Shown: positions 7,407 to 9,402, counted from the stretch's first letter. The stretch is 64,000 bases of DNA from GCF_057098645.1 NZ_CM169472.1, one strand, 5' to 3'. Numbers and translations: made by a program. The notes: generated by a model from the letters alone, not told the origin.

Positions 7407-8068
7407 GCGCCTTCTCCCTGTACCTGAATCAATGTGAGGTTTCCGCAGAACACTGCGCCAGTATCGATATACATCTGGTTGGCAAATTTGAGTGGTTTCA
7501 CTGCTGGCGTATGACCAAAGATGAACGTGTCCGCGCCTTTGATTTCTTTCACGATCCCGTCTTGTGAGTTGCTGATTCGTTCGCGGTTCCAGATTACCTG
7601 CTGATGATCAACTGGCTTTCCAAACTCGTATTTATCACAAGGATAATCGGCGTGGCAGATGACATATTTTTTTCCTTTACTCACCAGTTCGATGATTAAC
7701 GGAAGTTCATCTGCTTTATGGGCAAGAGCTTTAGCCAGAATTTCTTTGTCGTAATCGAGATTAAAGAACCAGCCACCGCCATTAAGCAGCCAGTGATTGA
7801 CGTTTCCACGCTCTGATAAGCCATCAATCATCATTTGCTCATGGTTTCCACGTACAGCTCTGAACCAGGGGAATGTGATTAATTCCAGGCATTCTACGTT
7901 CTCTGTACCGCGATCAACCAAATCGCCCACCGAGATAAGCAGGTCTTTTTTGGTGTCGAATCCTATCGTCTCCAGTTTTTTCATCAGGTTCGTGTAGCAT
8001 CCGTGCAGATCGCCAACTACCCAAATATTTCGGTATTTGCTGCCATCAATTCTTTCGTAGATATTCAT
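7403..8068 (-). CDS. ninI: Ser/Thr protein phosphatase (lambda PPase / NinI type)
   Basis: 221-aa ORF with the calcineurin-like metallophosphatase motifs GDLHG, GDLVDRG and GNHE. Confidence 0.9.
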
Positions 8069-8667
8069 GCAACCTCACTTCTGCTGTTTCGCAGTTTTTT
8101 AAGTTTCTGTTGATACTCCGCCTTGATGGCCCTGCACTCTTCGACAGTCCAGCGATAGCGGTTATGGTTTGATTCGATTTCCTCTACTGCTTCCTGCCCG
8201 ATGCGGCTAATCAGTTCGACGCGATACGGAACGAGATTTCCGCTTTTGTGCTGGTTGCACACCACGCATTGCTTGTGAATATTGCGTTCATCAAATCGGA
8301 GTTGAGGTGCCGCAGCAGTTGTCCGGTAATGTCCGGCATCCCACTGAGCAGACGTGAGCGTTCCGCACGAGATACATGGTAAGTCGCGGTCTCTTTCTCT
8401 GATGAAGGCGTTTACGGCTTGTTGGGCTTGTTTAATCCAGTAACTGCGGGGCTTTAAGGCGAGTTTTTGAATCTTAAGTTTATCTTTCTGTTTCTGCTCC
8501 TCTCGTCGTCGTTTCTTCTCTGCTGCTTTTTCCGCTTTTTCGCGTTCTTTACTTCGTCGTTCGAGTGCTATCTTGGTTCCACAAATCTCATTACACAAAT
8601 ATTGATTTTGATATTTTGGTATAAACCATTCATTGCAACATTTACATTTCCTTCGATAGATTCGCAT
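8065..8667 (-). CDS. ninG: NinG/Rap-like recombination protein
   Basis: ORF track 8065..8727 trimmed to internal start [15 protein letters not shown]; the lysine/glutamate-rich stretch and C-terminal half match lambda NinG. Confidence 0.75.
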
Positions 8668-9208
8668 AAGTGCTCCTTTCGTTGCCGGAAAAATCACCGT
8701 AATACTTATCTCGGGCTTCTTCAGCAACTAGTACCGCTAACTCCAGATCATCAAAGCATCCGAAGTGTTTACTCTTTCCATGGAATCCTAGCCTAACATT
8801 CCATTTTTTCTGTCGTTTGTGCCAAGTAACCCCTCTGCAACCTGATTTGCTATTCTTTCGGATCCTTATATTTCTTGAATTTTCTATTGGCAGGCATTCT
8901 CTTAAATTTTCTGGCCTATTGTCGGTCCTAATTCCATTAACGTGGTCAATTTGACCAGCAGGCCAACGATTATGAGTTATGTAAAAAACTAAGACGTGAG
9001 TTTTATATCTACGCCCATCTATCATGATCATTGAATAACCGTTGGAATCAAAAGTTCCAGCAACACTATTTAATGCTATCCTTCCCTGAGTGGGAACTTT
9101 CCATCTAAATACCCCGGTAGATTTATCGAAACTTAGTAACTCAAATATCCTTTTAACAGTTAAATCTTCTCTTTTACGGTTACATCGTCTTCGCGCTGGT
9201 TTAGCCAT
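8642..9208 (-). CDS. HNH endonuclease with AP2-like DNA-binding domain (homing-endonuclease type)
   Basis: ORF track 8642..9289 trimmed to MAKPARRRC start; HNH motif region [25 protein letters not shown] and AP2-like segment [23 protein letters not shown]. Confidence 0.6.
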
Positions 9209-9402
9209 CGCCTTCTTCCTCCGTAATGGTTTTCTGAATTTGGCCACCTGAACAGAGCTCACCAAAGCTATGGATGTCGGTATTTCCACAATACCAAGAT
9301 GGCGAAAATAACTGCATGATAAGCCTCAGGGAAAAGGGAAGACACTACCCCCGATAATTCAGAAACAAATCGAAATACATGAACTAAAGAAAAAATCACA
9401 AC

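Follow-up and report, generated by a model that had tools for sequence, protein, structure and literature searches.

A probable HNH homing-endonuclease cassette in the 5′ end of ninG of lambdoid prophages

The stretch of DNA analysed here comprises 64,000 nucleotides (nt) of NZ_CM169472.1 (assembly GCF_057098645.1) and is referred to below as the window. On its minus strand it contains the late-early (nin) segment of a lambdoid prophage, in which a gene for an HNH endonuclease lies directly upstream of, and partly within, the gene for NinG (Rap). The order of genes on this strand is HNH endonuclease open reading frame (ORF), NinG, lambda-type Ser/Thr phosphatase and antiterminator Q. The longest HNH ORF runs from 9289 to 8642 and has a GTG start, while the ATG at 9208, with a GGAGGA Shine-Dalgarno sequence just 5′ of it, gives a protein of 188 amino acids (aa) encoded at 9208 to 8642, which is also the form annotated by RefSeq in identical loci. 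NinG is encoded by a complete ORF of 200 aa from 8667 to 8065, so that the two genes share the 26 nt from 8667 to 8642, in agreement with the overlap of about 26 bp given in an initial annotation of this DNA. Annotations of both genes exist in hundreds of public genomes, among them ECs_3504 and ECs_3503 in the Sakai prophage Sp17 and those in the Stx1 phages SH2026Stx1 and AU6Stx1. The sequences used for comparison were those of lambda, E. coli E21845, E. coli Ecol_545, a Salmonella Infantis prophage, the Stx1 phages SH2026Stx1 and AU6Stx1, H-19B and Emek.

The endonuclease ORF begins with the start of a lambda-type ninG. Over 29 consecutive nt (ATGGCTAAACCAGCGCGAAGACGATGTAA, 9208 to 9180, minus strand), which encode MAKPARRRC, the window is identical at every position to lambda, Ecol_545 and E21845, and this relic of the resident gene consists of the ninG start codon, codons 2–9 and two further nt. 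The 13 nt on its 5′ side (9209 to 9221, minus strand; GAGGAAGAAGGCG) are the 3′ end of ninF, with two mismatches to lambda (11 of 13 nt identical) and 12 of 13 nt shared with E21845, and they double as the Shine-Dalgarno region. The stop codon of ninF lies in ATGGCTAA, and ninF is intact wherever it is present. Past the 29-mer the similarity to ninG ends abruptly. The endonuclease is in frame with the ninG ATG and first nine codons, and since there is no other Met before residue 60 its translation depends on the ninG-derived ATG. The comparison shows that the endonuclease would be translated from the initiation signals of ninF/ninG.

That the HNH ORF starts with the N-terminus of lambda NinG had been recognised in the initial annotation at the level of the peptide, and it holds for all 29 nt of DNA. 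The shared peptide is short (9 aa), and this alone would suit an ordinary ORF of the nin region that resembles NinG at its N-terminus by chance, but the identity is one of DNA and is accompanied by the 3′ end of ninF upstream. The 29-mer has a single occurrence in the window and none in 100 shuffles, homologs of the endonuclease have no MAKPARRRC leader, and loci that are free of the endonuclease are colinear with the window-type locus on both sides. A coincidental match is refuted by these results, and we attach practically no probability to the HNH gene being an ordinary neighbour.

The insertion point can be read from near-isogenic loci, some with and some without the endonuclease gene. The order ninX-ninF-HNH-ninG-ninH is found in E. 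coli E21845 and the Salmonella Infantis prophage, whereas Ecol_545 and lambda have ninX-ninF-ninG-ninH. E21845 is colinear with Ecol_545 and lambda as far as ...CGATGTAA, two nt past codon 9 of ninG, and the colinearity resumes at TGTGGAAC (codon 32), and in the window the identity to lambda ninG restarts at TGTGGAACCAAG, position 8583 corresponding to nt 94 of lambda ninG. Between these points 64 nt of the resident ninG (codons 10–31) are exchanged for 596 nt, made up of an endonuclease body of 512 nt (8668 to 9179, minus strand), which is foreign to ninG and present in neither lambda nor Ecol_545, and a divergent ninG 5′ segment of 84 nt (8584 to 8667, minus strand). From the colinearity of the loci it follows that a lambda-type ninG has the endonuclease gene within its 5′ end, the position that had been proposed for it, and that the 5′ end of the downstream ninG is foreign. 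Both junctions are identical in 54 loci from IMG/VR, the two Stx1 phages, E21845 and Salmonella Infantis, and the 29-nt relic is invariant across all loci examined that carry the 596 nt. Presence or absence at one site among colinear relatives is also seen in E. coli, where 536 of the 1091 genomes with any match to the region carry the insert. Read at the level of DNA, the alignments show a chimeric ninG.

The foreign 5′ module comprises 28 codons, has its own AAGGAG Shine-Dalgarno sequence within the 3′ end of the endonuclease gene, and is continuous with a lambda-type ninG body (8065 to 8583, minus strand) that differs from lambda at 13 positions over about 515 nt. The resulting ORF matches PF05766 with 277 bits over profile positions 5–192 of 193. 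The alignment shows that the right end of the insert, with its Shine-Dalgarno sequence, start codon and 28 codons, joins the resident body in such a way that the NinG ORF is again full-length. The initial annotation was therefore right in describing a NinG with a different N-terminus that then follows the usual sequence: its first 84 nt are those of a divergent, AT-rich allele, and identity to lambda holds from 8583 onwards. The divergent N-terminus has about 50–60% amino-acid identity to those of lambda, H-19B and Emek, while all four Cys of the zinc-finger region are retained. The TAA stop codon of the endonuclease falls across the eighth and ninth codons of the new ninG, in ...GGAAATGTAA, which is the position homologous to the left junction, and the C-terminal tail of the endonuclease results from reading, in a different frame, of the new gene's Shine-Dalgarno sequence and initial codons.

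This arrangement places direct ATGTAA repeats at both ends of the insert, and excision of the 541 nt between them would give an in-frame NinG, as might be expected of a group I intron in ninG that carried the HNH ORF. Enzymes of the I-HmuI type, to which this endonuclease is related (see below), are frequently intron-encoded. No Rfam model of a group I or group II intron matched at E-values up to 10, however, and the ORF fills the entire insert, so there is no room for a ribozyme core. By inspection of the sequence, no placement of the boundaries within the repeat yields the canonical U at the exon end and G at the intron end, and the downstream ninG has a Shine-Dalgarno sequence and ATG of its own. 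On the lack of a model match, the ORF-filled insert and the non-canonical boundaries we exclude an intron, the probability of which we put close to nil.

The two parts of the insert resemble each other in composition and are inherited together. With GC contents of 38.9% and 27.4%, the HNH body and the module are both poorer in GC than the ninG body (48.9%). In a collection of 5426 E. coli genomes, the 3′ end of the HNH gene and the divergent module were contiguous in 535 of 537 complete genomes, and in the one exception examined, PK8241, they are parted by an IS3 insertion. When the 2.9 million viral contigs of IMG/VR were searched with a degenerate peptide pattern that admits any codon usage, all 52 contigs with the module had the 3′ end of the HNH gene directly upstream. 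An endonuclease-free copy of the module was found in none of the 5426 E. coli genomes; in a collection of 50,697 phage records, blastn gave nothing beyond Emek-type alleles at 76% identity, and tblastn with the 34-aa N-terminus gave nothing above 60% identity. A protein search with the 40-aa divergent N-terminus returned 7 fragments only, full-length NinG sequences probably being clustered at 90% under lambda-type representatives. Because of the strict linkage, the low GC content of both parts and the lack of an endonuclease-free counterpart in the collections searched, the replacement 5′ end is very probably not a separate acquisition; HNH body and module behave as one cassette of 596 nt.

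In the initial annotation the endonuclease was proposed to have entered the 5′ end of an ancestral ninG, with a replacement 5′ end acquired by recombination. The foreign nature of this 5′ end and the mosaic junction are borne out by the alignment, whereas the linkage, the GC content and the missing endonuclease-free counterpart speak against its separate acquisition. A history in two events, as a literal reading of that proposal has it, in which the endonuclease first disrupted ninG and the 5′ end from another phage was later recombined in as a repair, would be in keeping with the fact that the N-terminal modules of NinG are exchangeable alleles with a shared boundary near codon 32, lambda, H-19B and Emek being about 95–100% identical past TGTGG. 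Yet the module never occurs without the HNH gene in any of the three collections named above, its GC content of 27% is like that of the HNH body and unlike that of any enterobacterial ninG, and the endonuclease ORF runs through the new ninG start and holds its Shine-Dalgarno sequence, so that the two are physically interlocked. We consider two separate events improbable.

The NinG of the window has a Leu (TTG) at 8596–8598, where a conserved Trp (TGG), part of a Y-W-C sequence in the zinc-finger region, is found in all other aligned cassette copies and in lambda, H-19B and Emek. The Leu variant is common only to a few genomes of 100% identity such as 2013C-4991, which is identical to the window over a 901-nt query and has a different type of Q downstream.

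The 188-aa product of the HNH gene matches the Pfam family HNH_3 (PF13392) with 42.7 bits (cut-off 24.8) and PHROG 99 at 1e-71, while the Pfam AP2 domain, searched with the single sequence, gives 22.2 bits and stays under its cut-off of 33.3. A profile built from the endonuclease and 13 homologs was compared with solved structures, and its N-terminal half matched I-HmuI (4e-7), while its C-terminal half matched the plant AP2/ERF domains of WRI1, TEM1 and ERF1 at 1e-10 to 5e-3. D88, H89, N101, L102, R103 and N110 are invariant in the alignment of 14 sequences and align with the DH...N...N motif of I-HmuI. The AlphaFold model of the protein has a mean pLDDT of 87, and its top Foldseek match in the Protein Data Bank (PDB) is I-HmuI (1u3e_M; probability 1.00, rmsd 3.5 over 98 columns), with a weak E-value of 0.01. 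AP2 domains come next among the fold matches, and on ERF1 (1gcc) the model has a target-normalised TM-score of 0.67 and an rmsd of 1.3. On these grounds the gene product is a predicted HNH_3 (I-HmuI-like) endonuclease with a C-terminal AP2 DNA-binding domain. I-HmuI (PDB 1U3E), an intron-encoded HNH nicking enzyme of Bacillus phage SPO1, is thus the best match of solved structure by both profile and fold and shares the DH...N...N His-Me finger motif, but it differs in being encoded by an intron and in having a DNA-binding part that is not AP2, and the identity is about 18% over 98 aligned positions. In the alignment the homologs begin later and stop about 11 residues earlier than the endonuclease of the window, and therefore have neither the MAKPARRRC leader nor the C-terminal tail, both of which are unstructured or of low confidence in the AlphaFold model.

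The endonuclease belongs to a family with 5020 copies in 3059 of the phage records, frequently with several copies per genome and frequently annotated as homing endonuclease. Its closest relatives are free-standing genes in virulent phages. The nearest non-identical homolog has 44% identity and is a free-standing gene in a T7-like context, on a metagenomic phage contig, where it lies directly downstream of a gene for a T7 endonuclease I-type Holliday junction resolvase. That position echoes the one of our endonuclease beside the junction-specific nuclease NinG, though this may be coincidence.

The cassette is found in many different surroundings and varies little between them. Upstream of it there are at least two contexts, namely ninF or an opposite-strand ORF of 590 aa, and downstream of ninG at least six, including two types of ninH, the phosphatase directly and IS elements. 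Between different prophage backgrounds the identity of the endonuclease body is 99.0–100%. The cassette has a nucleotide diversity of 0.003–0.005, compared with about 0.05 for the ninG body and about 0.1 for ninF; in a set of 18 distinct haplotypes of the ninF context, Salmonella included, the values for cassette and ninG body are 0.003 and 0.049, so that the cassette is about 10-fold less diverse than the adjacent sequence. Rightward of the cassette the diversity rises gradually, and farther upstream the sequences are effectively non-homologous. Between the window and the Salmonella locus 6 of 596 positions differ in the cassette and 26 of 515 in the ninG body. The ninG bodies of loci that bear the endonuclease do not cluster, that of E21845 being 7 nt from lambda and 18–24 nt from other bearers. 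These comparisons show a recent horizontal spread of the cassette across lambdoid backbones of E. coli and Salmonella.

We consider it probable, with some reserve, that the locus holds a free-standing HNH (I-HmuI-like) homing-endonuclease gene in the 5′ end of ninG (rap), within a 596-nt cassette that has recently spread among lambdoid prophages. In the history that we propose, the HNH gene and the divergent module would have arrived together from a lambdoid donor whose ninG was directly preceded by the endonuclease gene. On the right, crossing over would have taken place in the conserved stretch of ninG past codon 31, and the left join may have been illegitimate or mediated by microhomology at ...TGTAA. 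When an endonuclease-free lambdoid phage replicates alongside, the enzyme would nick or cut the lambda-type 5′ segment of ninG that its own allele is missing, and repair of the break would copy the cassette together with variable lengths of flanking ninG, as in intronless homing with co-conversion. The divergent 5′ module would then double as a version of the target that is immune to cleavage. We infer the cleavage of endonuclease-free ninG and the immunity conferred by the module from the behaviour of free-standing phage homing endonucleases, for which intronless homing, co-conversion and marker exclusion are described (PMC2988022).

A stronger form of this proposal, which we put forward only tentatively and would not at present bet on, is that the cassette is still homing today among the temperate lambdoid and Stx prophages of pathogenic E. 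coli and Salmonella. Upon co-induction or superinfection its HNH-AP2 protein would cut the zinc-finger-coding 5′ segment of an endonuclease-free rap/ninG, the AT-rich module would serve as built-in immune allele, and repair-driven co-conversion would add to the mosaicism of the nin region just upstream of Q and stx.

The insertion could also be real and the HNH protein inactive, or acting elsewhere, with the cassette carried along by ordinary recombination in the nin region of lambdoid phages, for which ninF with the start of ninG on one side and the ninG body on the other would serve as arms. Lambdoid mosaicism alone is able to shift a segment of 0.6 kb between backbones, and the ninF/ninG junction also hosts an accessory gene that is not an endonuclease, roi in H-19B. 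What speaks against a passive passenger is that the 188-aa ORF is intact, with every residue of the catalytic motif, in 57 of 60 copies (of the remaining three, two are truncated at contig ends and one is frameshifted), that the family is a classic multi-copy family of phage homing endonucleases, and that the roughly 10-fold lower diversity across the 18 haplotypes calls for a recent and efficient spread. We regard passive carriage as possible and, on balance, rather unlikely.

Several results nevertheless weigh against homing, and passive spread accounts for the population data nearly as well. Low diversity confined to the cassette and its presence on multiple backgrounds are also expected of a young segment moved by homologous recombination, which is rampant in lambdoid phages. 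One upstream context is common to 38 of the 59 sampled loci, which indicates that the sampling is partly clonal (Shiga toxin-producing E. coli, STEC). The polymorphic codons of the endonuclease gene comprise 11 synonymous and 13 non-synonymous ones, and such near equality means that purifying selection on the enzyme is weak at best; like the clonal sampling, it also favours passive carriage. The known free-standing phage endonucleases commonly cut hundreds of bp away from their own gene (PMC2988022), so the target need not be the 64 nt that were replaced. As for the donor lineage, no protein between 99% and 44% identity was present among 5.8 billion sequences, and 100,044 species-representative genomes yielded just one relative of 39%, in a Planctomycetota metagenome-assembled genome (MAG). 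In the literature we found no paper on this endonuclease or on the chimeric ninG junction, the genes themselves being already annotated publicly.

Several known systems can be compared with the locus. Like the seg and mob genes, which are free-standing homing endonucleases of T-even phages (PMC2988022), the endonuclease ORF lies outside any intron or intein, is present or absent at a single site among related phages and is inherited with flanking host sequence, and like the mob genes it combines an HNH nuclease domain with a separate C-terminal DNA-binding domain. In contrast to these, the host is a temperate lambdoid prophage rather than a virulent T-even phage, and the gene, instead of being intergenic, continues in frame from the first nine codons of ninG and needs the ninG start codon. 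It also differs from mobE in nrdA of Aeh1 and from mobA in gene 60 of T4 in that a replacement 5′ module is brought along and the host gene is not split.

In architecture, the nearest precedent is provided by the mobile endonuclease ORFs (mORFs) of fungal mitochondria, which create hybrid genes in Allomyces macrogynus (atp6) and in Glomus (atp6, atp9, cox2 and nad3) (PMC3630166). In both cases a foreign copy of the end of the invaded gene moves together with the endonuclease ORF, this segment appears to take over from the resident one, a remnant of the native terminus stays behind, and the ORF may be in phase with the host gene. Both hallmarks of such a hybrid are found here, namely a foreign 5′ module (84 nt) and a relic of the native gene (29 nt). 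The arrangement is nonetheless a mirror image, since the 5′ terminus is replaced here and the 3′ terminus there; 29 nt of the native terminus survive and the other 64 nt are deleted rather than displaced; the enzyme is of the HNH-AP2 type and not LAGLIDADG or GIY-YIG; and the setting is a bacterial virus.

Within lambdoid phages, the roi gene of H-19B is likewise inserted at the ninF/ninG junction and reuses the ATG that overlaps ninF. Unlike the endonuclease gene, it starts exactly at this ATG and is followed by a complete ninG with the normal MAKPARRKC, no part of ninG being replaced, and Roi is not a nuclease. The insertion of roi at the ninG ATG of H-19B implies that the ninF/ninG junction is a recurrent hot spot for insertion, and roi is also found there in HK022 and 933W.

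Should the enzyme be active, the locus would provide a simple, testable example of homing by an endonuclease of temperate phages, both in E. coli of medical importance (O157:H7 Sp17 and Stx1 phages) and in Salmonella. It would show how a coding sequence can be entered harmlessly, by capture of the start of the host gene and supply of a substitute front end, and would mean that the mosaic recombination of the nin/Q region, beside the Shiga-toxin genes, has a directed component as well; enzyme and target would also be a ready-made pair for the engineering of lambdoid phages. Were active homing true, the mitochondrial mORF strategy, in which the element brings its own gene terminus, would have its first counterpart in a phage here. 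With an inactive enzyme the locus would still be a clean, datable marker of recent exchange between prophages of E. coli and Salmonella.

The surroundings of the cassette in the window are mosaic in their own right. ninF is missing apart from the 13-nt relic, and a second, unrelated junction 13–17 nt upstream of the endonuclease ATG leads to the opposite-strand 590-aa ORF (9754 to 11526, plus strand), which has no Pfam domain and matches PHROG 9230 (unknown function). Megablast matches to endonuclease-free phages begin at 9221–9225. The arrangement with the 590-aa ORF is also present in SH2026Stx1 and AU6Stx1, and is the one found in 38 of the 59 sampled loci. A tandem repeat of the hexanucleotide AAATAG (5.8 copies, 9403–9437) lies between the endonuclease gene and this ORF, some 320 nt before the start of the latter, and the presence of more copies in SH2026Stx1 indicates that the repeat number is variable. 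Just past the 590-aa ORF is an IS3-family transposase ORF of 296 aa (11928–12818, minus strand), which suggests that the upstream nin region of the prophage is disrupted.

Downstream, the window is without ninH, and the stop codon of ninG overlaps the start of the phosphatase gene (ATGA, 8065–8068). The phosphatase begins with MNIYERIDG, compared with MRYYEKIDG in lambda, which marks a further mosaic junction that is also present in Sakai Sp17. Compared with the window and lambda, the ninG copies of the Stx1 phages are longer by an in-frame 9 nt (GAAAAGGCA), inserted in the linker rich in lysine and glutamate.

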